A stretch of DNA of 64,000 nt from Candidatus Moraniibacteriota bacterium (GTDB taxonomy: Bacteria > Patescibacteriota > Minisyncoccia > Moranbacterales > UBA11712). Of the stretch, positions 49,966 through 63,984 are shown in pieces. A model generated the notes under the pieces. The model was not told the origin of the DNA, did not search any database, and saw nothing but the letters and a program-made list of their open reading frames with translations. The position numbers and the translations under genes were made by a program. Where the stretch lies: assembly GCA_028695025.1 (NCBI GenBank), contig JAQVJV010000001.1, forward strand, positions 21,201-85,200, given 5' to 3'. Numbering within the stretch: position 1 is the first letter of the stretch; each line of letters opens with the position of its first letter.

Positions 49966-50652
49966 ATGAAGCAAAAACTCATCGTCATTTCGCTCGGCGG
50001 GTCTCTAATTTTCCCATCCGAAGGTATTGACTGGAAATTCCTGAAAAAATTCAAAGAACTGGTTTTGGGTCTTTTGAAAAACAACTATCGCCTCATCATT
50101 GTCTCCGGCGGAGGGACAGTGGCCAGAAAATACCAGGAAGCCGTTATGAAAATCGGCATCCTTGACAATGAAGACCGCGATTGGATCGGGATCCATTCCA
50201 CCCGCCTCAATGCCCATCTTCTGCGCACCATATTCCGGAAGTACGCCCACCCGCGCATCAACAAAAATCCCCATGAACGCTTCGATTTCCGCGAGAAAAT
50301 CTTGATCGGCTCCGGCTGGCGGCCGGGATTTTCCACCGACCTCGACGCGGTTCTTCTCGCAAAGGAATACGGCGCCAAAACCGTGATAAATCTTTCCAAT
50401 ATCGACTACGTGTACACCAAAGACCCGCGCAAATTCAAAGACGCGAAAAAAATAAAAGAAATCGCTTGGCCGGACTTTCGGAAAATAGTAGGCGACCGCT
50501 GGGATCCGGGGTTGAACGCGCCTTTCGACCCAGTCGCTTCAAAAATCGCCCAGGAATCAAAAATGGAAGTAGTGATTCTCAACGGAAAAAAACTCAAAAA
50601 CTTTGAAAATTTCCTCGCTGGAAAAAAATTCCACGGGACAACAATACGGTAA
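49966..50652 (+). CDS. pyrH: Uridylate kinase (amino-acid-kinase family, short/archaeal-like type)
   Basis: KLIVISLGGSLIFP, the IIVSGGGTVAR motif, and an overall size of 228 aa. Confidence 0.65.
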   Translation: MKQKLIVISLGGSLIFPSEGIDWKFLKKFKELVLGLLKNNYRLIIVSGGGTVARKYQEAVMKIGILDNEDRDWIGIHSTRLNAHLLRTIFRKYAHPRINKNPHERFDFREKILIGSGWRPGFSTDLDAVLLAKEYGAKTVINLSNIDYVYTKDPRKFKDAKKIKEIAWPDFRKIVGDRWDPGLNAPFDPVASKIAQESKMEVVILNGKKLKNFENFLAGKKFHGTTIR

Positions 50653-50654
50653 GA

Positions 50655-51143
50655 TCACAATTCCATCTTATCCCTGGTCAGGATATGCTCTTTTTCCTTG
50701 ATTTTTCTTCGCTTTATCAAAATGTAGAGAAGGCCGAAATAAACTGCGGCTGCTGCCGAAACGGCAATAACGACATAGCCGACAAGCAGGGGAACAGCCG
50801 TTTGACTCAAAACATTCCAAGTGAAAATATATTGCCAGCCCAAAGCCGCCGTCCGGTGAAAATCATGCGAGAGGGCTTGCGGATTGACGCGGAACAACAG
50901 CCCGCCAATGGCCGCCGCCAACGGAAGTGCCACTACTGTCGTCCACATATTCACCGAAAGGACGCCGGCGAGCGCCGCCAGGCGATTAAGCCGCAAAATG
51001 TAGGCGAAAATTAAGGTAGTCAGCACGCCTTCGCCAGGCGTGACGCCCATGAAAATCCCCAGTGCCGCGCCGCCGGCCACTTTGTGGGGCGTATCGTCGA
51101 TGAGAAAAAACTGTTTGATATGATCGCGTATCCTCTTTTTCAT
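50655..51143 (-). CDS. DUF2062-like small membrane protein
   Basis: KVAGGAALGIFMGVTPGEGVLTTLIFAYIL followed by 3 TM helices, a pattern I associate with DUF2062. It overlaps the upstream nuclease gene by 4 nt. Confidence 0.4.
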   Translation of the reverse strand: MKKRIRDHIKQFFLIDDTPHKVAGGAALGIFMGVTPGEGVLTTLIFAYILRLNRLAALAGVLSVNMWTTVVALPLAAAIGGLLFRVNPQALSHDFHRTAALGWQYIFTWNVLSQTAVPLLVGYVVIAVSAAAAVYFGLLYILIKRRKIKEKEHILTRDKMEL

Positions 51144-52258
51144 CCTTTTTTCACGACAAAACTTTTGCTCTCGCGGTCAACGGTTTTGGCCTTTTCCGCC
51201 TCTCTTCGCGCATCCGGAGGCAAAACGCCGAGGATATTTTTGAGCGCGATGCCGTCCACCTTCAGCACCGCTTCCCACTTGTCGAGCGGCTCAAGGATCG
51301 AGCGCAATTTTTCCGAATCATATTTATAACTCTTCCGGATCGAGCGTAAAACCCGGCCCGCGTCCGAAAACACCTGGTCGACTTCTTCTGTGTCCATATA
51401 TTTCCCAAGAGCCTCCTGCAGTTCGCCAATTCGGTCCGCTTTCGATTTGAGCTCGTCTTTGAGGGCGATATATTCGTCGATAACTTTTCCTATGTCGATA
51501 TTTTCTTCCTGCTCTTTTTTGAACTTATGCTTCCACATCGGGCAAATTTTCTGGTATCCGCACCAGTCACAAAGTCCGGAAAGGGCCGGTTCGAACTTTG
51601 ATTTCCCGATTTGGCCGATCAGGTCAAGCACGAATTCCTCGCTTTCCTTCACCTGGCCCAAAGTTCTTGTCGAGCTCAATTTCACGCCGTGCTTGAGATA
51701 GTAGAGCGAGACTTTGATGTTTTCGATATTTTTGGCTTCTTCGGGATAGCGTTTGAGAAATCCAGCGAGATAAATCGAGAGCTGGAGATCATTGTCCACC
51801 TTTTCCTGGCTCGGAAGTTTGCGGGTGGTTTTGTAGTCGATGATTTCAAACCCGTTTTCAGTCCGGTCGATCCGGTCAATGATTCCGGTGAGGATATGCT
51901 TTTCTTCCGATCCTATTTCAAGCTGGAAACGCGACTCGAGATCGACGATGTTCGTTTTCGCAATGTCGTTTTTTTTATAATAATCCTGAAGCATCGCCAC
52001 GCCTTGCGAAAAGGCGGCACGCTCTTCCGTTTCGTCGGAAAAAACCTCCGCGTTCCAATTTTTGGAAAAAAAATCAAGCGCCTGCTCCAAGGCGGGGGAG
52101 AGTATCCCCGGGGTATGCACCAGTTTCAAGGTATTATGAAGAAGCGTCCCGAAAACCTGCTCCTTGGATTTGGGAGTTTTCACGCGGTCGATTTGGGAAT
52201 ATTTGTATTTCAGCGGACAGACAAGAAACGTGTCCAAAGCCGAATAGGATGTGTTCAT
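51140..52258 (-). CDS. PD-(D/E)XK nuclease superfamily protein, Cas4/RecB-like with a 4-Cys cluster, plus a C-terminal coiled-coil extension
   Basis: An N-terminal Cys (FLVCPLKYKY), the motif-II/III arrangement GIIDRIDRTENGFEIIDYKT (D...ExK), and C-terminal CDWCGYQKIC (Cx2Cx5C). No cas genes or CRISPR repeats lie nearby. Confidence 0.6.
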   Translation of the reverse strand: MNTSYSALDTFLVCPLKYKYSQIDRVKTPKSKEQVFGTLLHNTLKLVHTPGILSPALEQALDFFSKNWNAEVFSDETEERAAFSQGVAMLQDYYKKNDIAKTNIVDLESRFQLEIGSEEKHILTGIIDRIDRTENGFEIIDYKTTRKLPSQEKVDNDLQLSIYLAGFLKRYPEEAKNIENIKVSLYYLKHGVKLSSTRTLGQVKESEEFVLDLIGQIGKSKFEPALSGLCDWCGYQKICPMWKHKFKKEQEENIDIGKVIDEYIALKDELKSKADRIGELQEALGKYMDTEEVDQVFSDAGRVLRSIRKSYKYDSEKLRSILEPLDKWEAVLKVDGIALKNILGVLPPDARREAEKAKTVDRESKSFVVKKG

Positions 52259-52571
52259 GGGGATATTTTTTATTACGCCTTATCTCATCTTACTTTTCTT
52301 CGCCCGATTCCGCAAGAGGAAATTGTTTGAAAAATAAGGGAAAATTTGATAGCATAGAAAGAGAATAATCACTTATTTTAAGCAAGATGAAAGAAGAACC
52401 AACCTGCAAAACGGGAATTAAAAAGAATGTAATAAACAAAAAAACATTCGATCGCGAAATGGAATTATGTCATTTACTTTCTAAAGAAAACAAGGGCGGC
52501 TGCGGATGGGGAAAAGCGGGGATTGTGGAGTTATTCCCTTGCTTGTGAAGCTGCATGAGGGAATCCTGTTG

Positions 52572-52623
52572 GAAGATGCAAAAGATATCAAATCAGCAAG
52601 AGATAGATATTTGAAAAAAAATC
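52572..52623 (+). promoter_or_regulatory. Conserved ~50-nt leader, copy 1, immediately upstream of the CYTH gene
   Basis: ggaagatgcaaaagatatcaaatcagcaagagatagatatttgaaaaaaaatc is repeated at 55453-55505 with about 85% identity. Confidence 0.45.
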
Positions 52624-53205
52624 ATGCAAATTGAATACGAAGCCACTTTTGAAAAAATTGACAAGGACGAAATGCGCGAGCGCTTGAAAAACACGGGCGC
52701 GAAATTAGTGCGTCCCGAATTTTTATCCCGTCGAGTGACACTGAATCTCCCCTCCGGACATGAAATCCCAAACGCATGGATAAGAGTCCGGGATAACGGC
52801 CAGAAAATAACCCAGACTTTGAAAATCGTTGCTAATGGCAAAATTGATAATCAGCAAGAGTTGGAAGTCAAGGTTGATGATTTTGAAAAAACAATCGAAT
52901 TCCTCGAAAAAATCGGCTGCCTAAAGAAATCCTATCAGGAAACAAAAAGGGAGAAATGGGAATTGAACGATGTTGAAGTGACAATTGACGAATGGCCGTT
53001 TCTCGAACCTTTTGTGGAGATTGAGGGAAAAAATGAAAATGAAGTTCGAAAAATTTCAGAGAAGCTTGGATTCGACTGGAGGAAGGCCTTGTTCTGCGCC
53101 ATCGGCCATTTATATGAAAGAAAATATAGGATACCCGAAAATAAGTTTAATAATGATTTTACGAAAATAGTTTTCGAAATGGAAAATCCTTTTAAAAATT
53201 TTTAA
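52624..53205 (+). CDS. CYTH-domain protein (triphosphate-tunnel metalloenzyme / class IV adenylyl cyclase-like)
   Basis: 193 aa with an N-terminal acidic EYEATFEK motif region, then ...AWIRVRDNGQKITQTLK...ELEVKVDDFE...KKSYQETKREKWELNDVEVTIDEWPFLEPFVEIEG, following the CYTH beta-barrel pattern (RIR..G...LT.K...E.E...KxR......v.lD...lG.F.EIE). Confidence 0.5.
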   Translation: MQIEYEATFEKIDKDEMRERLKNTGAKLVRPEFLSRRVTLNLPSGHEIPNAWIRVRDNGQKITQTLKIVANGKIDNQQELEVKVDDFEKTIEFLEKIGCLKKSYQETKREKWELNDVEVTIDEWPFLEPFVEIEGKNENEVRKISEKLGFDWRKALFCAIGHLYERKYRIPENKFNNDFTKIVFEMENPFKNF

Positions 53206-53215
53206 AAGTAACAAT

Positions 53216-53851
53216 ATGCCAATCACAAATCCCAAGCGCAAAAAAAGAATAGAAAAATTCATCGACAAGGATCATCGTGTTATGAATGATTATTATGAAC
53301 TGATTGAAAGTGATATATCAGCAAAGAAGCTTGAAAAAGAATTGAAAGAAATGATAGAGGCGGATCCTGATTTTTATGATCCCTATATTGCATTAGCGGA
53401 TTTATATTTTTATAACAATAAGAAAGATGCGGGAGGAAAATTGCTAAAAATCGCTTACGATCGCGCGGTGGATAGAATAGTCGATTCAAGGGGAAACTGG
53501 CCTGAATTAATGGAATGGGGATGGCTGGAAAACCGACATTTGATGCGCGCACTTGAGCAATTCGGGGTTCTATTATGGGAAACCGGAAAAACCAAAGGAG
53601 CGCTGGATATTTTCAGGAAAATTTTGCGCATGAATCCGGGAGATAATCAGGGAATGCGGCATAATATTCTGGCAATAAGACTCGGAATGGGAGTCGAGGA
53701 ATGGCAAAAACCTTTCGAAGCAAAACATAAAGGAGAAGTTGTAGGGATCGACGCGGGAAAAGTAAGTAATTGGTTTGAAAAAAATGCCAAAAATTTTCCA
53801 GACGAATTTGATTGGCTATTTGAAGAATGGAAAAAATTTGATGAACAATGA
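53216..53851 (+). CDS. Hypothetical TPR-like helical repeat protein
   Basis: 211 aa with helical repeat segments (YIALADLYFYNNKKDAGGKLLKIAYDRAVD and ALDIFRKILRMNPGDNQGMRHNILAIRLG). No catalytic motif recognised. Confidence 0.35.
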   Translation: MPITNPKRKKRIEKFIDKDHRVMNDYYELIESDISAKKLEKELKEMIEADPDFYDPYIALADLYFYNNKKDAGGKLLKIAYDRAVDRIVDSRGNWPELMEWGWLENRHLMRALEQFGVLLWETGKTKGALDIFRKILRMNPGDNQGMRHNILAIRLGMGVEEWQKPFEAKHKGEVVGIDAGKVSNWFEKNAKNFPDEFDWLFEEWKKFDEQ

Positions 53852-53889
53852 TGTGCAGTCTTTATATCATCAGATAAACAAAATAACCC

Positions 53890-55422
53890 ATGGACCAGAA
53901 AACCGCGTTTGAAGTTTTGAAATCGGGAGCGAATGTTTTTTTGACCGGGCCGGCGGGGAGCGGGAAGACTTTCCTCTTGAACAAATACATCGATTTTCTT
54001 GAAGAAAACGGGATCGAAACGGCCGTCACCGCCTCCACCGGAATCGCGGCGACGCATATCGGCGGCCTCACCATCCACGCCTGGTCGGGCCTCGGCATCA
54101 AAGACCATCTCTCGAAAAAAGACCTTGAAAAAATCGTCCGCAAAAGCCGGGTCGAGCGGCGCGTATCCTGCGCGGAAGCGCTCGTGATCGATGAAATATC
54201 CATGCTCGACGCGAACCAGCTGGACAATGTCAACCAAATCTGCAAAAGGGTGCGGGATCCGTTCCTGCCGTTCGGAGGGCTCCAAGTCGTCTTGTGCGGA
54301 GATTTTTTCCAGCTTCCTCCGGTGAGCAAGGGAAGCGCGAAAGCCAAATTCGCTTTTTCCGCGCAAGTCTGGCAAGAAGCGGGCATACAGGTTTGCTATC
54401 TCGACGAACAGCACCGGCATCAAGATGACGGCCTTTTGGCGGCGCTCAACGCCATAAGAAGCTCGGAAGTTGATGAAAACGCGAAAGATATAATTTTTTC
54501 GCGCCGGAACATGCCGATTGCAAACGGTGCGGAACCCACCCGGCTTTATACCCACAACGAAGACGTCGACCGGATAAACGGCCTTGAGCTCGGGAAAATC
54601 GATGCAAAAGCGGTTGCGTACAAAATGCACGCTTCGGGAAAAAAACCGCTCGTGCAACTCCTCATGAAAGGGTGTCTCGCGCCGGAAACGCTTGCGCTCA
54701 AAATCGGGGCGCGCGTGATGTTTGTCAAGAACAATTTCGACGAAGGATACATAAACGGGACGATGGGGACGATTGCCGGTTTTGAAAAAGAAAGCAAGAT
54801 GCCGATCGTGAAAACGGACCGGGGAAAATTGATAACAGCAACTCCCGCCCAATGGGAAATCGAAGAAGACGGGGAAATCCTCGCCAAGATCCGCCAAGTT
54901 CCCTTGCGCCTCGCTTGGGCCATCACCGTCCACAAAAGCCAGGGGATGAGCCTGGACGCGGCGGAAATCGACTTGCGGCATTCTTTCGAACCGGGGATGG
55001 GATACGTCGCGCTTTCCCGCGTGAGGACCCTTGACGGCTTGCGGCTTTTGGGGATCAATGATATGTCGTTCGAGATCAACCGGGAAGTTCTCGAAGCGGA
55101 CAAAATTTTCGCCGAAATGTCCAAGGATCTCTCGGAAAAAATCAAGGCTGGCGGACAGTTGGAAAAGAAAAAAATATTCAAGAAAAAAATTTCCCAAAAG
55201 AAACGGGGATCGAAAGGCAAATCAGGGATGGCTGATTTTGTTTCGCGCGCCAGGGAAAAACATCCGAAGGCATATATGCCCTGGACGGAAAAAGAAGACG
55301 AAGATTTGAAATATTTTTTCCAGAAGCAGAAAAGGCCGGAAAATGATCTCGCAATCGTTTTTCAGAGAAAACCCGGCGCCATCCGCGCGCGGCTCAAGAA
55401 ACTGGGACTTGTTGAATTTTGA
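53890..55422 (+). CDS. Pif1-family (RecD-like SF1B) DNA helicase with a basic C-terminal extension
   Basis: Motif I GPAGSGKTFLL, Ia TASTGIAATHIGGLTIHAW, II ALVIDEISML, the Pif1 signature VVLCGDFFQLPPV, motif V AITVHKSQGMSLD, and GYVALSRVR. Confidence 0.8.
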   Translation: MDQKTAFEVLKSGANVFLTGPAGSGKTFLLNKYIDFLEENGIETAVTASTGIAATHIGGLTIHAWSGLGIKDHLSKKDLEKIVRKSRVERRVSCAEALVIDEISMLDANQLDNVNQICKRVRDPFLPFGGLQVVLCGDFFQLPPVSKGSAKAKFAFSAQVWQEAGIQVCYLDEQHRHQDDGLLAALNAIRSSEVDENAKDIIFSRRNMPIANGAEPTRLYTHNEDVDRINGLELGKIDAKAVAYKMHASGKKPLVQLLMKGCLAPETLALKIGARVMFVKNNFDEGYINGTMGTIAGFEKESKMPIVKTDRGKLITATPAQWEIEEDGEILAKIRQVPLRLAWAITVHKSQGMSLDAAEIDLRHSFEPGMGYVALSRVRTLDGLRLLGINDMSFEINREVLEADKIFAEMSKDLSEKIKAGGQLEKKKIFKKKISQKKRGSKGKSGMADFVSRAREKHPKAYMPWTEKEDEDLKYFFQKQKRPENDLAIVFQRKPGAIRARLKKLGLVEF

Positions 55423-55452
55423 GGTTTGGCCTTGAGAAAAATAAATCACTCC

Positions 55453-55505
55453 GGGAGATGAGAAAGATATCAAATCAGCAAGAGATAAATATTTGGAATA
55501 AAACC
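55453..55505 (+). promoter_or_regulatory. Conserved ~50-nt leader, copy 2
   Basis: gggagatgagaaagatatcaaatcagcaagagataaatatttggaataaaacc is the second copy of the 52572-52623 leader. Confidence 0.45.
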
Positions 55506-55559
55506 ATGCGAAAAATAGTTTTCGAGATGGAAAATCCTCTTGAATCCTTAGATTCTTAA
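55506..55559 (+). pseudogene. Internally deleted remnant of the CYTH gene (17 codons: start region fused to the C-terminal end)
   Basis: atgcgaaaaatagttttcgagatggaaaatcctc... (MRKIVFEMENPLESLDS*) joins the CYTH start context to the last 13 codons or so of the full copy (...TKIVFEMENPFKNF* at 53163-53205). About 540 bp of the gene are missing. Confidence 0.55.
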
Positions 55560-55575
55560 ACCTTAAAATAATCCC

Positions 55576-56757
55576 ATGGAGCAAATGCCCCAACCAAAGC
55601 CGCTTACAGAAACAGTAATAGTCAGTTCTGCCGACACTCAAGAAAAATATAAACGTGACTGGAAATACAAAGACTATTCTTTCGAAAAATGGGAGAAAAA
55701 CGGCTTCTTAACCACAAAAGAAGGGCTTCCATCCAAACTTGACCGCGAATGTTATGAATTAGTGAGAACGCCGGAATTTAAAAACTGGTTCGGGGATTGG
55801 GAAGAGAAAGGTGAAAACGCCAGCAAAATGATTGATCCGCAAACCGGCGAGCCTCAAGTTTTTTATCGCGGTGACAAGTCATTATACAAAGAAGGTTTCC
55901 TAGTAAAACCAGAAGAAGAGCGCACAATTGGAAAATACGATAAGAGCTATGTAAGCCAACTCTCCAAAGCGCAATCTCGTAATCAAGGTGTTTTTTTCAC
56001 GGATAATGAAAAGGTGGCGCTTGAGTATGGGACTGATATAAAAGCTGTTAGTTTGGGAAAATACAACCTCCATCCCGAAAAAGATCACCCAAAAACTTTT
56101 TTGAAAATACGCAATTGGCTGGAATCTTTTGCCAACAAAGATCCGGATTTCTGGAAAAAAGTATTGGATTATACCGTGAATCCAATGGGTCCCGGCGTTA
56201 GTGACGAAACTTATAAAAGAAACCTTCTTGCTTATTTCCAAAGACATAACTTTTCCAAGCAAGACTCCGAAAGCCTCTGGCAAGAAGTCCATACGAAAAG
56301 AAGACTTACTAATCCGGGATATTATATCGATCTCTTCGTCCACAATGGTGCTTTTGAAAACTTGATTAGGGGTTTTAGTTCTCAATCATTCAAAGCGCCA
56401 GACGCGCCTTTTGGCAGTCCATGGTTTATTAAATTTGGGAGCAAGAACACACCTGAATGGAGCAAGCAATTCAAACAGCTCGCTTTAGAATATTTTTCTG
56501 AACCGCTTGCTTTGAGCACGGTCTTTATTCGATCGAAAAAACCAAAAAAAATGCGATACGTAAATGTTGACGGAGGTTTTGAAATATATAAGGCGCGAAT
56601 AGAAGGCCATGACGCTTTCATACACGAAAAGGGCGTGGGGAAGCATACAAAAGGTGTTCCAGATAAAGCTGATGAAATAATCGTCTACGAAACCGAAAAT
56701 ATATGGACTGTGAGAAAGAAGCCGCTGGCTGAAGAAATTATGCGAGCCAAAAAATAA
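55576..56757 (+). CDS. Hypothetical protein (393 aa), unknown function
   Basis: A clean ORF in an AT-rich block. Trp-rich segments (KNWFGDWEE, SPWFIKFG), a VFYRGD segment and a late YETEN segment. No domain assignment I can support. Confidence 0.35.
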   Translation: MEQMPQPKPLTETVIVSSADTQEKYKRDWKYKDYSFEKWEKNGFLTTKEGLPSKLDRECYELVRTPEFKNWFGDWEEKGENASKMIDPQTGEPQVFYRGDKSLYKEGFLVKPEEERTIGKYDKSYVSQLSKAQSRNQGVFFTDNEKVALEYGTDIKAVSLGKYNLHPEKDHPKTFLKIRNWLESFANKDPDFWKKVLDYTVNPMGPGVSDETYKRNLLAYFQRHNFSKQDSESLWQEVHTKRRLTNPGYYIDLFVHNGAFENLIRGFSSQSFKAPDAPFGSPWFIKFGSKNTPEWSKQFKQLALEYFSEPLALSTVFIRSKKPKKMRYVNVDGGFEIYKARIEGHDAFIHEKGVGKHTKGVPDKADEIIVYETENIWTVRKKPLAEEIMRAKK

Positions 56758-56775
56758 TTTTTTCACTTTCTTTCC

Positions 56776-56804
56776 TTGCAAGTTTTCGCGGCAGGGGATA
56801 GTAT
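56776..56804 (+). promoter_or_regulatory. Sigma70-like promoter (TTGCAA-17-TAGTAT) for iscS, implying a leaderless mRNA
   Basis: TTGCAA at 56776-81 and TAGTAT at 56799-804. The iscS ATG at 56814 is 10 nt after the -10. There is no SD. Confidence 0.45.
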
Positions 56805-56813
56805 TAATGTCAT

Positions 56814-58010
56814 ATGGCCAAAAAGAGAATTTATCTTGATTACGCTTCTACGACGCCCGTCGATCCCCGGGTTTTTTCGGCTATAAAGCCCTATTTTTCC
56901 GTGAAATTCGGAAATCCGTCTTCGATCCACTCTTTCGGCCGGGAAGCGGGCGAGGCAGTGGAAAAAGCGCGCCATCAAGCGGCCGATTTTTTCGGTTGCG
57001 ACCAAAGCGAAATCATTTTTACTTCCGGCGCGTCGGAAAGCAACAACCTCGCCGTGAAGGGGACAACGATCGCCAGGATATCCCACTCAAGCCAGGGGAA
57101 AACGAAGCCGCATATCATCACCACCCAATTTGAACACTCCTGCGTCCTTGCCTCCTGCAAGAAACTGGAACAGCAAGGAATGGCCGAGGTGACCTATCTT
57201 CCCGTCGGAAAAGACGGGGTGGTGAAGATTCTTGATGTGAAAAAATCAATCAAAAAAAATACGGCGTTGGTTTCTGTTATGTACGCCAACAACGAGATCG
57301 GGACAATCCAGCCGATCCGGGAAATCGGAAAAATAATCAAGAAAGAAAATTCGGAGCGCGGAGAAAAAATCATCTTCCATACGGACGCCGTCCAAGCCGT
57401 GAACTATCTCGATTGCAAGATTGACAACCTCGGGGTTGACCTGCTCACCGCTTCGGCTCATAAGATATACGGGCCGAAAGGCGTCGGACTGCTCGCCGTT
57501 CGCAAAAATACTCCGATGAAAAGGATCCAAGACGGCGGGGGACAGGAATTCGGAATGCGCGCCGGAACGCTCAATGTCGCCGGAATCGTCGGGTTCGGCG
57601 AGGCTCTCGAAATTGCCGAGAAAGAACGGCCGCGCAACTTCAAAATCGTTGAAAAATTGAAAGGCCATATGGTCGGGCGTATCTTGGAAGAAATCCAAGG
57701 AGTGAAACTCAACGGATCGAAAACAAAGAGGCTTCCCGGAATCGCCAACTTCACCGTCCGCGACGTGGAAGGCGAAGGGCTTCTTCTCGGACTTGACCTC
57801 GAAGGCATCGCCGTATCCACCGGAAGCGCTTGCTCGGCTGCCGACCTTCGCCCGTCTCACGTCCTCGCCGCGATCGGACTATCTGAAGAAGAAAGCCATG
57901 GTAGCCTGCGGGTGAGCCTCGGGAAATACACGACCAAGCAGGAAGCGGATATTTTTGTCGACACGCTCAAAAAAGTGGTTGATAGATTAAGAATGATAGC
58001 AGGAAAATAA
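56814..58010 (+). CDS. iscS: Cysteine desulfurase (IscS/NifS type)
   Basis: IYLDYASTTPVDPRV, the PLP-Lys region (SAHKIYGPKGVG), and the active-site loop (SLGKYTT / GSACSA). Confidence 0.85.
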   Translation: MAKKRIYLDYASTTPVDPRVFSAIKPYFSVKFGNPSSIHSFGREAGEAVEKARHQAADFFGCDQSEIIFTSGASESNNLAVKGTTIARISHSSQGKTKPHIITTQFEHSCVLASCKKLEQQGMAEVTYLPVGKDGVVKILDVKKSIKKNTALVSVMYANNEIGTIQPIREIGKIIKKENSERGEKIIFHTDAVQAVNYLDCKIDNLGVDLLTASAHKIYGPKGVGLLAVRKNTPMKRIQDGGGQEFGMRAGTLNVAGIVGFGEALEIAEKERPRNFKIVEKLKGHMVGRILEEIQGVKLNGSKTKRLPGIANFTVRDVEGEGLLLGLDLEGIAVSTGSACSAADLRPSHVLAAIGLSEEESHGSLRVSLGKYTTKQEADIFVDTLKKVVDRLRMIAGK

Positions 58011-58103
58011 AAGGACTCGCGAATGAAAAAACGAATTGAGAGCGAATGAGAACGAAAATAATTCGTTAAAATTCGTTTTAATTAGTTTTTAATTCGTGAG
58101 TAT

Positions 58104-58565
58104 ATGTATTCAAAAAAAGTCCTCCAATATTTTTTGAAACCGAAAAACCAGGGCCGGATGAAAAATCCGGACGGGGTTGGCATTGTCGGAAACCCGACTT
58201 GCGGAGACATCATGACTGTCTATATTAAAGTAAATAAATCGAAAGACCGCGAGACAATATCCGACATCAAGTTTGAAACGCTTGGATGCGCCGCCGCGAT
58301 CGCCACTTCGTCGATGGTGACAGAAATCGCAAAAGGAAAAACTTTGGACGAAGCTTTCAAAATCACGCGCCAGGATGTGGCTGATGAGCTTGAAGGACTT
58401 CCTCCGCTCAAGATGCATTGTTCGAACCTGGCGGAAGGCGCCCTCAAACGGGCAATAGATGATTATAAATCAAAAGCGAAAAAGAGCGGTTCCGGCCAAA
58501 CGGAGAAAGCGCAAAAAGCAAAGCCGAAGAAGAAAACAGCCGCAAAGAAAAAATCAAAAAAATAA
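58104..58565 (+). CDS. iscU: Fe-S cluster scaffold IscU/NifU-like with a Lys-rich C-terminal tail
   Basis: NPTCGDIMTV, ETLGCAAAIATSSM and LKMHCSNLAEGAL motifs (three conserved Cys), plus a roughly 35-aa K/A-rich tail. Confidence 0.85.
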   Translation: MYSKKVLQYFLKPKNQGRMKNPDGVGIVGNPTCGDIMTVYIKVNKSKDRETISDIKFETLGCAAAIATSSMVTEIAKGKTLDEAFKITRQDVADELEGLPPLKMHCSNLAEGALKRAIDDYKSKAKKSGSGQTEKAQKAKPKKKTAAKKKSKK

Positions 58566-58759: not shown

Positions 58760-59348
58760 TCAAAACTCTTTTATAACATCCAAACCTACATTTTTTAATG
58801 CCTTATAAAGTTTGTTTAATGGAAGGCCAACGACTGCATAAAAATCTCCGTGAATTTCCTCTATAAGAACTGCTGCAAGATTTTGTAATCCATACCCTCC
58901 TGCTTTGTCAAAAGGTTCCCCAGTTTCAATATAATCATTGATCTCCTGATTATTTAATTTTTTAAACTTTACCTTTGCTCTACTAATTCCATTAATGACC
59001 TTTCCACTTCTAGTATCGATCACCGCAAAACCAGAAATAGCCTCGTGTTCTTTTCCTGAATAATTTTTTATCATTTTCTCTGCCTCCTTCTTGCCCTTGG
59101 GTTTCCCTAACGGCTTTCCTTCATACACAATGATTGAATCAGCTCCAATTATAATTGCGTCTTTATAATGCCTTGCCACATCCTGAGTTTTTTTTTAGAG
59201 CTAAATACTTAACCAGTTTATATGGGTTCTTATATTTACTCATATCTTCCTCGTATTGACTTTCCCTTATTTGAAATCTTAAACCGATTTGCTCTAATAA
59301 GTTTTTTCGCCTCGATGATTTTGAGGCTAAAACTATTTTTCTTTTCAT
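58760..59348 (-). pseudogene. maf: Maf-like nucleoside triphosphate pyrophosphatase gene split by a +1 frameshift in an A9 (T9 on plus) homopolymer
   Basis: The N-terminal ORF (59163..59348: KIVLASKSSRRKNLLEQIGL...) and the C-terminal ORF (58760..59179: ...IIIGADSIIVYEGKPLGKPK...GYGLQ) are both Maf-like. Removing one A from the A9 run at 59187-59195 restores ...LKKTQDVARHYKDAIIIGADS... Confidence 0.75.
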
Positions 59349-59357
59349 AATATTTTT

Positions 59358-60698
59358 CTAATGATAAACAATCATCTGATCAATCGTCGTTCCGCTTCCG
59401 TAGAGGGCACCGACATACGCGCGGGTCGAGTCGAGATATATGTTTGATCCCCAATAAGGATCGTGCACCACATATTCTCCTTTTTTGTCCTTTCCGTGGA
59501 TCACCACATAGTGCCCCGCTCCCCTTTTGGTCGACTTCACAAAAACAATCACCGGATTATCATCTTTCAATTCATCGTCTATCACGTCCCAATCAACGTT
59601 TCCGTGATAAGTCGTGGAAGACAGCTTCACTCCCTTCCAGGCATTCGGCCAGACGATCAGGTCATGATAGAAAATCGGCTGGTCGGCGAGCGTCCCGGGA
59701 TCGATATTCACCCCGTGATATTTGAGCACCATTGAAAGAGCCGTCACCGCGCAACCATAGCTCTTCATGAGCGTGTTGGAATATCCAATCGTCTGATTAG
59801 CCCAGCGCTTGTCTTTTTGGGAAAAGTACCAACTGGCTGAAGCGAGTCCAGAAGCCGGCTTTTTGATGTTGGCTTCGACTTCCGCAAGAGCGTCACTCCT
59901 CTCCGAACTCAACTCTTCAATGTCGCCCAAGAGTTCCTGCTTCTCCTGCTCCACCCGTTCAAGGAGATCTTGGTATTTTTGCTCCTGTCCTTGCGTGTCA
60001 ACCAGGAGTTGCCTTCTCGAAGATTTCTCCGAATCAAGCGAAAGCTTTTTTTGGGTGGCATCCCCCCGCTGTTTTTTTTGTTCGTCGTTTTTGAACTCCA
60101 AATCTTTTTTCGCCTGTGCCAGGCTGTCCTGGGCGTCCTTGATTGAATTCAGCATTTCATCGACTCTGGAGCCGGTTTGGGAAATATATTCCGTCTGGTT
60201 CATGAAGTCGGAAAAACTGGAGTTTTTGAGAAGCATTTCCGTGAGCGTGTCCTGATCATTTTCATAGAAAGACTGCAAAAGCTGGCCGAGGATTACTTTT
60301 TGTCCGTCAATTTCTTTTTGCTTTTCCCGAATTTGGGAACTCAAGCCGTCAATGTCCTGCTGGTTTGCGTCGATGTTCTTTTGGATTTCATTGATACTGC
60401 TTTCAAGCGATGATATTTGGGTTTCCATCAACTGGATCTGGTTCTGAAGCGCGCCTTCTTTGTTTTGGTTGACTTTGATCATTTGGCGATAGCTTGCCGC
60501 CTTTTGTTCCAATTCGTCTATTTGCTCCTGCTTCTCTTCAATTTCTTCTTGGTTGGTATCATCAGCCAGGACTTTGCTTTCTATAAAAAATACAAAAATA
60601 AAAATAAAAAACAAGTACAAAAACCCTGCCGCGTAACGACTCCAGATTTTCGGCTGCAGACTTTCGACTTTTGACTTTTTATATTTGTATTTGCTCAT
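59358..60698 (-). CDS. Membrane-anchored coiled-coil protein with a C-terminal C39-like (papain-fold) cysteine peptidase domain
   Basis: An N-terminal TM helix, about 250 aa of coiled coil (heptad-rich Q/E/K), and a C-terminal domain with the Cys motif (MKSYGCAVTALSMVLKYHG) and His-rich segments (HYVVIHGKD, VVHDPYWG). Confidence 0.5.
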   Translation of the reverse strand: MSKYKYKKSKVESLQPKIWSRYAAGFLYLFFIFIFVFFIESKVLADDTNQEEIEEKQEQIDELEQKAASYRQMIKVNQNKEGALQNQIQLMETQISSLESSINEIQKNIDANQQDIDGLSSQIREKQKEIDGQKVILGQLLQSFYENDQDTLTEMLLKNSSFSDFMNQTEYISQTGSRVDEMLNSIKDAQDSLAQAKKDLEFKNDEQKKQRGDATQKKLSLDSEKSSRRQLLVDTQGQEQKYQDLLERVEQEKQELLGDIEELSSERSDALAEVEANIKKPASGLASASWYFSQKDKRWANQTIGYSNTLMKSYGCAVTALSMVLKYHGVNIDPGTLADQPIFYHDLIVWPNAWKGVKLSSTTYHGNVDWDVIDDELKDDNPVIVFVKSTKRGAGHYVVIHGKDKKGEYVVHDPYWGSNIYLDSTRAYVGALYGSGTTIDQMIVYH

Positions 60699-60703
60699 AT
60701 TGG

Positions 60704-62182
60704 CTAATTTTTCAGGGAAGCGATGGCTTGTTCGATTCTTTCCATGCTTTCATTTTTCCCAACCACCCACGCCACTTCCCAAGGCGAAGGACTTTTTTTC
60801 TCTCCGGTGAGTGCCACCCGGAGCGGCCACAGGAGCGCTCCCCTGTCTTTTGGATCAGCTGAAGCCATCAACTTGTTTTTTATATCTTCCAACTCCCAAT
60901 TCTCTTCGCTTATAGCATCCAATATTTCCCGAGACTTATTCAGAGATTTTTCGAGATCTTCACTGCCCATACTTTTCCATTTCAAGAGATCAGCATCTGG
61001 TTTCGGAGTATCAAAATAAAATTGAGTTCCTTCAGCGATATCCGACAATTTCTTCATCCGTTCTTTTTCGACTTGGATAATTTTTTTGAGATGTTCGTCC
61101 GACAAGCTATTATTGTATTTTTTAAGATACGGACGGCAGAGTTTTGCGAGTTCGCCATCATCTTTTTGGCGGATATAATACCCATTCATCCAATCCAATT
61201 TTTCCTGGTCGAATATCGCGCCGGCTTTGTTGAGTTTTTCAAGATCAAAGGCCGCTGACATCTCGTCGAGCGAAAAAATTTCCTGCTCCGTTTTCGGATT
61301 CCAGCCAAGAAGAGCGATGAAATTCACGACTGCTTCCGGAAGATAGCCCTTTTTTTTGAAATCTTCGACGCTCACGTCTCCGTCTCTTTTTGACAGTTTT
61401 TTCCTGGTATTCTTGTTGAGGATGACGCAAAGATGCGCGTACTGCGGCGGTTTCCATCCGAATGCTTCAAAAAGCAAAATATGTTTCGGCGTGCTCGGAA
61501 GCCACTCCTCTCCTCTGAAAACCAGGGTTGTCTCCATGAAATGATCATCGACCACGTGCGCCAAATGATAAGTCGGAAATCCGTCAGATTTAAGAAGAAC
61601 AAAATCGTCAAGATTCTTATTGGAAAAAAAGATTTTTCCGCGGACCGCGTCTTCAAAACTTATCTCCCCTGTTTCCGGAACATCGAAGCGGATCACGTAT
61701 TTCTCGCCGGCTTTGATTTTTTGTTCGGCTTCTTCGCGCGAGTAGGTTTTGAGGCAAAGCTTGTCGTAGGCCGGCGCCAGCTTGGCTTTCTCTTGTACCG
61801 CCCGCAGGCTGTCCAATCTTTCCGGCGTGCAGAAACAATAATAGGCCTTGCCTTTTTTCACCAATTCATGCGCGTATTTTTGGTACAGCTCAAGCCGCTC
61901 GGATTGCATATAGGGGCCGAATTCGCCTTTTTGCCTTATGCTCCCTTTTTCGTCAAGGACAATCCCCTCTCCATTTTCCACGCCGGCCCATTCAAGCGAT
62001 TCGACCAATTTTTCCACCGCGTCCGCCACCAGCCTCTTTTGGTCAGTATCTTCAACGCGAAGAAAATAATCTCCCCCGGTTTTTTTGGCATAGAGAAAAT
62101 TATAGAGAGCCGTTCGCAGGCTTCCGATATGCAAGTATCCGGTTGGGCTGGGCGCAAAACGCACCCGTGGTTTTTCAGCCAT
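60704..62182 (-). CDS. gltX: Glutamyl-tRNA synthetase
   Basis: HIGS motif (RFAPSPTGYLHIGSLRTALYN), KMSKS-type KLSKR, and a class I GluRS-type catalytic domain. Confidence 0.9.
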   Translation of the reverse strand: MAEKPRVRFAPSPTGYLHIGSLRTALYNFLYAKKTGGDYFLRVEDTDQKRLVADAVEKLVESLEWAGVENGEGIVLDEKGSIRQKGEFGPYMQSERLELYQKYAHELVKKGKAYYCFCTPERLDSLRAVQEKAKLAPAYDKLCLKTYSREEAEQKIKAGEKYVIRFDVPETGEISFEDAVRGKIFFSNKNLDDFVLLKSDGFPTYHLAHVVDDHFMETTLVFRGEEWLPSTPKHILLFEAFGWKPPQYAHLCVILNKNTRKKLSKRDGDVSVEDFKKKGYLPEAVVNFIALLGWNPKTEQEIFSLDEMSAAFDLEKLNKAGAIFDQEKLDWMNGYYIRQKDDGELAKLCRPYLKKYNNSLSDEHLKKIIQVEKERMKKLSDIAEGTQFYFDTPKPDADLLKWKSMGSEDLEKSLNKSREILDAISEENWELEDIKNKLMASADPKDRGALLWPLRVALTGEKKSPSPWEVAWVVGKNESMERIEQAIASLKN

Positions 62183-62195
62183 ATGCGTAAAAAAT

Positions 62196-62912
62196 TTAAT
62201 CGTTCATAAGAGCTGTTATCGGAAAAATAATGACGGCGTTCGCGATCCGGTGGATCCTTTTCGGCTCTTGGACTAACCGCCAAAGCCACTCAAATCCCAG
62301 TGAGCGCCAAACTTGTGGTGCCCGGCGAATTTTTCCGGTCAGAAAATCAAACGTTCCCCCGACGCCCACGAATATTTTTGCCTTTGGAAATTTCTCCCGA
62401 TTTTCGGCAATGAATTTTTCCTGATCAGGCGCTCCAAAATTCACGAGAACTATTTCAGCTTTTTTAATTATACCATTTTCGAAGAAGTTTTGGCCAGTGT
62501 CGAAATATATTGATCTTGCGGGAATATTTGGATACTTCTTTTCAAGGCTTTTTTCAATTTCTTCCGGCGAACTTAAGCTGTTTCGGGAAACTATGGCCAA
62601 TATCTGATATTTTTTTTGGCTGGCCAATCCTAGCAAAAAATCAACCAGGTCAGCCCCGGCCCAGCGATTTTTGATTCTTTTTTCCTTGAAAAAACTCACT
62701 AATTTCAAGCCAAAACCGTCACAGATATTGAGATCCGCTTGATTAAGAATTTTTTTATAACCCGCATTTTGGTGAGCTTTAAGGAGAATTTCCGGATTGA
62801 GCGTGGCGGCAAAAATCGAGCCTTCTCCACTTTCAAGCATTTCTGCCAATCTTTCTTCCAGATCTTCAATCGCGTAATCGTCAATTCTGATGCCGAGGAT
62901 ATCCATAGTCAT
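62196..62912 (-). CDS. WecB/TagA/CpsF-family glycosyltransferase (GT26)
   Basis: TLNPEILLKAH...NICDGFGL and a C-terminal FEWLWRL motif are typical of the WecG/TagA family. Confidence 0.7.
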   Translation of the reverse strand: MTMDILGIRIDDYAIEDLEERLAEMLESGEGSIFAATLNPEILLKAHQNAGYKKILNQADLNICDGFGLKLVSFFKEKRIKNRWAGADLVDFLLGLASQKKYQILAIVSRNSLSSPEEIEKSLEKKYPNIPARSIYFDTGQNFFENGIIKKAEIVLVNFGAPDQEKFIAENREKFPKAKIFVGVGGTFDFLTGKIRRAPQVWRSLGFEWLWRLVQEPKRIHRIANAVIIFPITALMND

Positions 62913-62913
62913 T

Positions 62914-63984
62914 TCACTCTATGTCCGCTTGATATATGGCCGGCGCGTCCGATTTCCCGTCAGCGTGGATTTCCGAACCGTCGGCGGCATAAACTCCGAA
63001 AGTGATCTTATTGTCGCCCGGATTGATATTGGTGAGATCTATTTCGATGTTTTTTTTCTGTTTTATGGAAGTTATATACTGGCTGAAAACCTCCCGCCCA
63101 TTAAAAAGAACTTTGATTCCCATCGGTTTTGGAAGTTTCAAATTGAAACTGAAACGGCCGTCCATCAATCCTCCGGCCATATTGACCAGATTGAGCTCGG
63201 CTCCGCTTTCGGCATAGCGCTTCGCCCCACCCTTGGCCGTACTCTTTCCCACCCAATGATCTTTGGACGGAAACGCCAAAAACATATGGCTCGGCATTTT
63301 GGAGCGGTCGACCTGGCAGGCGTAGAGGTATTCGTCTTCGTAGGTATCCGAGCATTCGATGACGCTTGAGATATACGCCTTCATCGGATAAATCATATCC
63401 CGATCGCCCTCTTCCGGGTTGCCTTTGAGAGCTTGCTTGTCAAGGATTATATATCGGACATCGTAATATTTCAAAATTTCATTGGCAATGTCATAATAAG
63501 AGCTTTTCATGATATCTGAATTATTCCTGTCTTCTTCATCCGGAACATCATAGAGCAAATCACGGATAATCGGGGTATTTTCTTGGAAGAGATAGGCTTC
63601 TTTATTTACACGGGCAAAATCGTAGCTGTTGAGGGTGTTTTTCCGATGGATGCTTTTCCAAACCAGATCCCGCGAAGCAAAACTGTAGCTTGTGCTTCCC
63701 GGAACTTCGATCACACTATATTTTTCCTTATCCTGCCCCAATTTTTCGTAAAAAGAAGAATGAAGAAGCGAGTTCGTCTCAAGCGGAACAGCCAAAAATT
63801 CAACGGCGACAACAAAAGTGATCATTGGATAAAATATAACTCTAAATTTATTTTTACGAGAATTATCCGGGTTATCTCCCTCCCCTGCATTATCACTGCC
63901 TTTTTTATTTTTAGTTTTTAGATTTGATATTTTAGATTCCGCGTAGGCCATACCCCAAGCCGCAAGCACGGAAAAGCCAAGCAT
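62914..63984 (-). CDS. Hypothetical protein, probably the C-terminal part of a larger membrane protein continuing beyond the window end
   Basis: The ORF is open to the window edge. A hydrophobic segment lies near the listed start and a large soluble domain follows. No motif recognised. Confidence 0.3.
   Translation of the reverse strand: MLGFSVLAAWGMAYAESKISNLKTKNKKGSDNAGEGDNPDNSRKNKFRVIFYPMITFVVAVEFLAVPLETNSLLHSSFYEKLGQDKEKYSVIEVPGSTSYSFASRDLVWKSIHRKNTLNSYDFARVNKEAYLFQENTPIIRDLLYDVPDEEDRNNSDIMKSSYYDIANEILKYYDVRYIILDKQALKGNPEEGDRDMIYPMKAYISSVIECSDTYEDEYLYACQVDRSKMPSHMFLAFPSKDHWVGKSTAKGGAKRYAESGAELNLVNMAGGLMDGRFSFNLKLPKPMGIKVLFNGREVFSQYITSIKQKKNIEIDLTNINPGDNKITFGVYAADGSEIHADGKSDAPAIYQADIE

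Follow-up and report, generated by a model that had tools for sequence, protein, structure and literature searches.

Proteins of the ART-PolyVal family (PF18760), which corresponds to the Tox-ART-HYD2 clade of ADP-ribosyltransferases (ARTs), have a published active site formed by His in strand 1, Tyr in strand 2, and Asp in strand 5 (Iyer et al. 2017, PMC5512222). Relatives of this family, of the CYTH or triphosphate tunnel metalloenzymes (such as CyaB and the archaeal SaTTM, Saci_0718, PDB 7ns8), of the Pif1/RecD2-type SF1B helicases, and of the Cas4/AddB-type Fe-S nucleases, together with a relic of the kind left by gene duplication in small bacterial genomes, lie close together between pyrH and iscS in a genome of Candidatus Moranbacteria. 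We analyzed this interval within a 64-kb stretch of contig JAQVJV010000001.1 (hereafter the window; all positions count from its first letter). A first-pass annotation had described it as a variable accessory or conflict locus in which one leader of ~50 nt heads two alternative modules. Our analysis indicates that the region is quite probably a lineage-specific mosaic of functionally unrelated genes, not a coordinated system, and that what had looked like a repeated "leader" is not a leader RNA but coding sequence, namely the 3' end of a conserved gene for a small Cys-rich protein (smallCys). The chief value of the work lies in this correction, by which an apparent shared leader resolves into two things, an overlapping stretch of coding sequence and a decayed paralog. 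The neighborhood of nuclease, CYTH, and helicase is a one-off juxtaposition, and a false defense-system candidate is thereby removed.

The repeated segment and its coding nature

Two short overlapping open reading frames (ORFs; 52387-52548 and 52506-52634, + strand) precede the CYTH gene (52624..53205, +; 193 aa), and when a single base is restored they give one 82-aa product, encoded at 52387..52634. The fused translation matches 41 proteins of ~77 aa, with up to 73% identity over 94% of the query and across the frameshift. Five Cys residues (C7, C28, C39, C44, and C47) are invariant in the family, and H57 is nearly so. When its DNA was aligned with that of four homologs, the window gene proved to be missing the T in the codon for the invariant Cys44, through a 1-nt deletion after 52515. 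In addition, the family stop (TTGAAATAA) has become TTGAAAAAA in the window (TAA>AAA), extending the frame by five codons into CYTH. The segment previously taken for a leader (52571..52630, +) reads ..EDAKDIKSARDRYLKKNHAN* in the smallCys frame, overlaps the CYTH ATG at 52624, and aligns to the C-termini (..LLED..I..AR.KYLK*) of smallCys homologs. Because of the fused ORF, the homolog alignment, and the lost stop, we identify it as the last 20 codons of smallCys, a frameshifted gene that had been overlooked. A regulatory RNA or 5' untranslated region is ruled out, since the segment encodes, in frame, the C-terminal end of a protein family and an Rfam search of 50500-57500 at E ≤ 1 returned no match. 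Upstream of smallCys, a promoter-like site (TTGAAA-17-TAGCAT with an extended TG; 52327..52355, +) was recognized by consensus match only.

The second copy of the segment, located between the helicase gene and the gene for a 393-aa protein, is real. Positions 52571-52630 and 55453-55512 are identical at 52/60 sites (87%; blastn E=7e-16 against the whole window), and positions 53164-53196, which are C-terminal codons of CYTH, match 55512-55544 at 30/33 sites (91%; E=1e-7); a blastn search of the whole window with the repeat gave no further match below E 0.03. The second copy equals the first minus 534 nt (178 codons), removed in frame within an A-rich stretch; the earlier estimate was about 540 bp. 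By alignment, translation, and blastn, we identified this element (55453..55544, +) as the relic of a second smallCys-CYTH pair. Its first part (55453-55512) reads ..GDEKDIKSARDKYLE* in the smallCys frame, with the stop (55499-55501) at the family's usual position, and its second part (55512-55544) is the CYTH tail. The 17-codon remnant described earlier was also recovered: a mini-ORF (55506-55559) that begins ATG-CGA-AAA-ATA, encodes MRKIVFEMENPLESLDS, and fuses the CYTH start to CYTH C-terminal codons. The idea that the same leader heads two alternative modules does not survive these results, as the second copy is a decayed remnant of smallCys and CYTH.

The nucleotide string ATCAAATCAGCAAGAGATA is common to both copies and occurs in no homolog, which makes the two copies each other's closest relatives. 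The relic retains E and K of the closest homolog (L091), in place of which copy 1 has A and R. Judged from these sequences, the copies appear to be paralogs born within this lineage, both of which diverged afterwards. The proposed cassette duplication or recombination therefore holds as far as the duplicated segment and the mutual closeness of its copies are concerned, but the relic is no cassette header. The element resembles the gene-duplication remnants and pseudogene relics of small bacterial genomes in that a paralog has been cut to 60 + 33 nt that remain 87-91% identical, with the deletion in an A-rich stretch. It differs from them in that both ends of a two-gene unit are kept, the in-frame deletion leaves a 17-codon ORF, and the surviving "functional" copy has itself lost smallCys by frameshift.

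We propose that the smallCys-CYTH pair was relocated and duplicated in this lineage. One copy, upstream of a TPR gene, would have kept CYTH intact while smallCys was frameshifted and lost its stop. The other, between the Pif1 helicase gene and the 393-aa gene, would have decayed by deletions to 93 nt, comprising 16 terminal smallCys codons and the CYTH mini-ORF created by the 534-nt deletion. The copies would have been placed around a resident TPR gene and a common Pif1 gene, adjoining a sporadic ART-fold gene. Because no close-enough genome was found, we leave these events unordered.

It is exceedingly improbable that the repeat or the frameshifts reflect an assembly or sequencing artifact. 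The source is a metagenome-assembled genome, and two frameshifted genes (smallCys, and maf at an A9 run) lie within 7 kb. Yet an exact-protein look-up returned a sole other contig, Logan contig L001, which was assembled independently and carries an identical 7.7-kb arrangement together with the smallCys frameshift. Moreover, the smallCys indel site is not a long homopolymer, and the copies, 87-91% identical and set in unique sequence, are not a collapsed or chimeric repeat.

Recurrence of the gene pair and synteny around iscS

The association of smallCys with CYTH recurs outside the window. CYTH follows smallCys in loci L087-L090 and, more broadly, in L087-L094, L106, and L129, with 60-72% identity to the window CYTH. 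It also comes after smallCys in 9 of the 72 metagenome loci with enough downstream sequence, and it is the upstream neighbor in 6 more. Among 116 immediate same-strand neighbors of smallCys, the top Pfam families were HD (16), CYTH (13), Ham1 (6), NUDIX (4), His_Phos_1 (4), MazG (3), and HAD (3). These neighbors are nucleotide and phosphate hydrolases, not defense genes, and the smallCys-CYTH pair, which recurs in Patescibacteria, comes from a setting of housekeeping type. Pif1, TPR, and the 393-aa gene were absent from all 80 smallCys loci surveyed. The smallCys protein had no Pfam, NCBIfam, or PHROG match and no fold match. An uncharacterized small Cys-rich family that accompanies nucleotide phosphohydrolases is thus a modest lead for the poorly characterized Patescibacteria.

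The window CYTH protein matches the Pfam CYTH domain (PF01928) with 42.9 bits, above the gathering score of 23.2 (E=5.9e-11), is full length, and retains all invariant residues of its close relatives. E4, Y5, and E6 are invariant in the alignment, and the N-terminal E-x-E and conserved Arg/Lys/Glu residues are shared with the triphosphate tunnel metalloenzymes. Its nearest solved relative is SaTTM (7ns8; E=8e-6). It departs from these enzymes in falling below the CyaB equivalog cut-off (TIGR00318; 44.8 vs 57.95 bits) and in being paired with an uncharacterized 77-aa Cys-rich gene. By homology, the protein most likely hydrolyzes a nucleotide or polyphosphate triphosphate.

We then compared the surroundings of iscS-iscU (56814..58565, +), which by synteny form a backbone common to relatives. 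In the window, maf, a C39-like peptidase gene, gltX, and a WecG-type glycosyltransferase gene, recognized by profile searches, follow in that order 3' of iscU. In the relatives L093, L094, L106, and L171, iscU is 77-88% and iscS 76-77% identical to the window genes. The order in L106, L093, and L094 is 791aa-WecG-163aa-smallCys-CYTH-gltX-C39-NUDIX, with iscU and iscS convergent. In sister genomes smallCys-CYTH is found between WecG and gltX, at a distance of ~8 kb. These two flanking genes adjoin in the window, where the pair is gone from its usual slot; it stands on the other side of the isc genes, in opposite orientation relative to iscSU. The order of iscS-iscU, C39-like peptidase-gltX, and WecG-type glycosyltransferase is conserved in all four relatives (window 59358-62918, - strand for the latter genes). 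Within this order, the gltX-WecG slot holds smallCys-CYTH, a 241-aa gene, or nothing, and the iscU-C39 slot holds NUDIX or maf.

The small TPR protein (53216..53851, +; 211 aa) shows weak TPR matches under Pfam cut-offs and has 145 homologs of ~200-220 aa. In L171, the sole relative to have both TPR and iscS, where the order is NYN-ResIII-TPR-218aa-iscS-NUDIX-iscU with C39, gltX, a 241-aa gene, and WecG convergent, the TPR gene is part of the local backbone, and its product is 73% identical (IscS, 77%) to that of the window. The variability claimed for the locus was confirmed here: the interval between TPR and iscS differs between related genomes, being occupied by a 218-aa gene in L171 and by Pif1, the relic, and the 393-aa gene in the window. 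The 218-aa gene is a conserved TPR partner without a confident Pfam match, present also in L174 (72% identity between the two; L171 3769-5083 and L174 6328-7596), where the TPR homolog has a different setting. Neither this partner gene of 200-218 aa nor the ResIII, NYN, and APH neighbors seen in relatives occur anywhere in the window.

The same data bear on an alternative origin by a single insertion, in which a DNA molecule, circular or linear, would have brought in TPR-Pif1 along with part of a smallCys-CYTH pair. Homologous recombination of the Campbell type with a resident pair would then have left an insert of 2.9 kb between direct repeats. Two repeats of like orientation do bracket exactly the CYTH body, TPR, and Pif1, 2882 bp apart, and one crossover in the shared segment would yield the observed order. 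We nevertheless regard this origin as quite improbable. The residence of TPR beside iscS in L171 makes it an unlikely cargo, the incoming copy would already need the 534-nt deletion, and no mobility genes are present at the locus. The copies also differ at 11/93 nt, so that the event, if any, would be old.

The nuclease, the helicase, and the question of defense

Profile searches found the PDDEXK_1, CYTH, weak TPR, and PIF1 domains expected from the first-pass annotation, with the genes at the positions it gave. The nuclease gene (51140..52258, - strand; 372 aa) encodes a standalone protein of the AddB/Cas4 superfamily that matches PDDEXK_1 (PF12705) with 116.9 bits (gathering score, 22; E=1.8e-33) and the exonuclease profile phrog_69 (E=1.7e-27). 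It shares with Cas4/AddB Fe-S nucleases the PD-(D/E)XK core, an N-terminal Cys, a C-terminal C..C.....C cluster (CDWCGYQKIC), and weak Cas4/AddB profile matches. Unlike them, it has an extra coiled C-terminal region of ~130 aa and belongs to a large standalone family of ~380 aa; at E ≤ 1e-3 we found 5180 cluster representatives, mostly standalone and 370-400 aa long. The description as a Cas4-like standalone nuclease is right for the superfamily, but not for Cas4 itself. A CRISPR-associated Cas4 is ruled out by the equivalog score (TIGR00372; 33 vs a cut-off of 65 bits) and by the lack of any CRISPR array or cas gene in the 64-kb window; the neighbors of the nuclease gene are a DUF2062 gene, pyrH, and smallCys. 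The protein most likely processes DNA ends, as judged from its family.

The helicase gene (53890..55422, +; 510 aa) has the PIF1 core (PF05970; 126.1 vs 25.9 bits, E=2e-36) and the 2B domain (PF21530; 28 vs a gathering score of 23.9) of Pif1/RecD2 SF1B helicases. It differs from them in nothing notable, apart from a C-terminal extension of ~70 aa that weakly resembles phage D5-like regulator regions. A role as a 5'-3' DNA helicase for replication or repair is most likely by analogy. A 516-aa ORF on the opposite strand (53647-55197, -) runs across this GC-rich gene and is almost certainly spurious. Among GTDB species representatives, 304 relatives of the helicase were found, and the best 80 of them, nearly all from Patescibacteria of many classes, are 47-60% identical to it. 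In these 80 loci, a tblastn search within 10 kb detected no homolog of CYTH, TPR, smallCys, or the 393-aa protein. When the genes next to Pif1 in 77 of these loci were scanned with Pfam, the 142 immediate neighbors yielded 211 families, none in more than 4 loci. A defense association of CYTH, helicase, and nuclease therefore finds no recurrence in either the 80 Pif1 or the 80 smallCys loci.

Base composition gave a mixed picture. The block has a GC content of 0.431, compared with 0.454 for the window, and among 58 window genes TPR (7th percentile), CYTH (10th), and the 393-aa gene (19th) are indeed low in GC. On the other hand, the nuclease and Pif1 genes stand at the 71st and 95th percentiles, so the block described as AT-rich is not uniformly so. 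TPR, the lowest in GC, is nonetheless in conserved order with iscS in L171.

These observations allow the defense hypothesis to be weighed as a whole. In its full form, CYTH-TPR-Pif1 and the 393-aa gene would be alternative effector modules behind a common leader, with CYTH, helicase, and nuclease cooperating in a defense or conflict island. A nuclease and a helicase are both present, three genes are at the low end of GC, relatives differ in the TPR-iscS slot, and the 393-aa protein, as described below, has an ART fold of a phage- or mobile-element-associated family and occurs sporadically. We still consider such an island very improbable. The supposed leader belongs to the coding part of a conserved gene, and its second copy, a remnant left by deletion, heads no intact module. 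In addition, TPR is syntenic with iscS in a relative, and Pif1 has the GC content of housekeeping genes. A multi-gene defense system in the sense of a recurrent operon is rejected because CYTH, TPR, Pif1, and the 393-aa gene do not co-occur in the 80 + 80 loci. A known system is rejected for want of any system-specific match in PADLOC (PADLOC-DB v2), which returned nothing for CYTH, the 393-aa protein, and smallCys, and for the other block proteins only generic Cas4/RecD-like/PDC helicase matches and one weak stray TPR match. No integrase, CRISPR array, or tRNA gene is found near the block, the nearest tRNA gene being at 18.6 kb. What stands of the variable accessory or conflict locus is the differing TPR-iscS slot and the sporadic 393-aa gene of a phage- or mobile-element-type family; the defense cassettes do not.

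Several points weigh against a mosaic of unrelated genes with the history proposed above. Part of the block does look accessory, given the slot that varies among relatives and the phage- or mobile-element-type family of the 393-aa gene. PDDEXK_1 nucleases account for 3 of the 142 Pif1 neighbors, and in L011, alone among the 80 loci, a PD-(D/E)XK gene lies directly upstream of Pif1, which would fit a loose helicase-nuclease affinity. No genome is near enough to display an intermediate state, the best relatives being 60% (Pif1), 56% (393-aa protein), and 73% (smallCys) identical. The smallCys frameshift could be a read error, and the two assemblies that carry it may stem from the same reads. Finally, a relic that is ~12% diverged and yet persists in a streamlined genome could have been retained for a reason.

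The ART-fold protein and the relic upstream of it

The 393-aa gene (55576..56757, +) begins after a spacer of 153 nt that separates it from Pif1. Its product is identical to a hypothetical protein from a Candidatus Moranbacteria MAG. Full-length homologs number 14, every one of them from metagenome bins of Patescibacteria type, and farther matches carry the ART-PolyVal domain (homologs P0002 and P0016-P0026). The protein itself scores below the PF18760 gathering threshold (16.7 vs 31.2 bits). Residues 45-104 match a giant phage-protein profile (phrog_30335; E=3.5e-12), and relatives encoded on at least 389 phage contigs correspond to residues ~40-230 only. The protein resembles solved ART domains in structure, which places it in the ADP-ribosyltransferase fold and supports its ART-fold membership. 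Compared with ART-PolyVal, it stands alone as a cellular protein instead of forming a domain within a giant protein of a phage or conjugative element, and its ART core is split by a helical insert of ~200 aa. Motif alignment of the active-site positions showed that R98 replaces His and F140 replaces Tyr in all Patescibacteria members; the acidic position is E372 in this protein and E, D, or A across the family. The protein is most likely an NAD+-using ART-fold enzyme, an activity predicted from its fold. The clade of cellular proteins that have this phage-type ART fold but other catalytic residues is a second modest lead from this locus.

Homologs of the 393-aa protein occur sporadically, amid unrelated housekeeping genes, and have no constant partner gene; their neighbors differ in L082, L083-85, and L086. 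Readings of the gene as an ART toxin with an antitoxin, or as part of an operon, find no support, for lack of a conserved adjacent partner. The closest of the long homologs, a protein of 585 aa, comes from L083 (2607-5233), where its gene shares 8 nt with an upstream gene for 249 aa whose product weakly matches a nucleotidyltransferase. A 60-aa ORF follows, and these genes may form a small operon in that genome only. Longer homologs have an N-terminal extension of ~130 aa, and a remnant of it upstream of the 393-aa gene was also sought and rejected, since the tblastn alignment runs through stop codons with negligible identity.

The helicase and 393-aa genes were thought to share an unusual start context. 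The contexts are similar (AAAATAACCCATGGA for Pif1 and AAAATAATCCCATGGA for the 393-aa gene), but they had been slightly misread, being a 1-nt indel apart, and the exact 16-mer occurs once in the window. Nor is the context specific to the block: CCCATGGA occurs twice in the window, against 2.4 occurrences expected by chance, and an A-rich stretch with (A/T)TCC(C)ATG after it is likewise found at the starts of several unrelated window genes. A shared start context was accordingly discarded as a block-specific signal.

A promoter-like site found by consensus match only, TTGAAT-18-TAAAAT (55540..55569, +), connects the relic to the 393-aa gene. Its -35 element lies inside the CYTH tail of the relic, and its -10 element ends 6 nt before the 393-aa ATG, a leaderless-type geometry. 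The 393-aa gene is probably transcribed from its own leaderless-type promoter, as this arrangement would allow. The relic may have been exapted in this way, with the CYTH tail supplying the -35 (TTGAAT, 55540-55545), or the 17-codon mini-ORF, or a 33-codon ORF from 55458, might act as an upstream ORF affecting expression of the 393-aa gene. The same placement of -35 and -10 beside the ATG is seen at other window gene starts, TTGAAT represents ancestral Leu-Asn codons of the CYTH tail that were retained in the relic and lost in copy 1, and the relic has persisted at ~12% divergence. However, promoter-like sites are not more frequent in the region (9) than in shuffled sequence (7.0 +/- 2.8), no more of the relic than its last few bases would be required, and no such relic precedes the homologs of the 393-aa gene. 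We consider exaptation rather unlikely, though it is compatible with an origin of the relic by duplication and decay of the smallCys-CYTH pair. The promoter overlap is the sole hint of a present-day role for the relic, and it is a weak one because such sites are no commoner than in shuffled sequence.

The leads can also be combined. In that case, smallCys would serve "house-cleaning" nucleotide phosphohydrolases (CYTH, HD, Ham1, MazG, and NUDIX) across Patescibacteria as a dedicated partner whose function depends on a metal or on redox state, and the 393-aa protein would be a Patescibacteria-specific domesticated ART-PolyVal derivative with an R/F/E site and a promoter exapted from the CYTH relic. 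Taken jointly, these propositions are unlikely.

At many gene starts in the window (e.g., 3337, 11987, 38048, 41872, and 55576), a TTGCxx -35 element is paired with a -10 element ending ~6 nt before the ATG, and no Shine-Dalgarno sequence is present. Because of these many pairs, the sequence suggests that leaderless-type initiation may be common in this genome, which is a further lead for Patescibacteria.

On the pyrH side, the ORF list and profile searches place pyrH at 49966-50652 (+) and the DUF2062 gene at 50655-51143 (-). On the opposite flank, maf is split on the minus strand into a 61-aa N-terminal ORF (59163-59348) and a 139-aa ORF (58760-59179; Maf profile positions 63-191), whose frames join at the A9 run near 59194-59202. 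The split may reflect a sequencing error or a pseudogene, or else slippage may rescue a frameshift at the poly(A) run.

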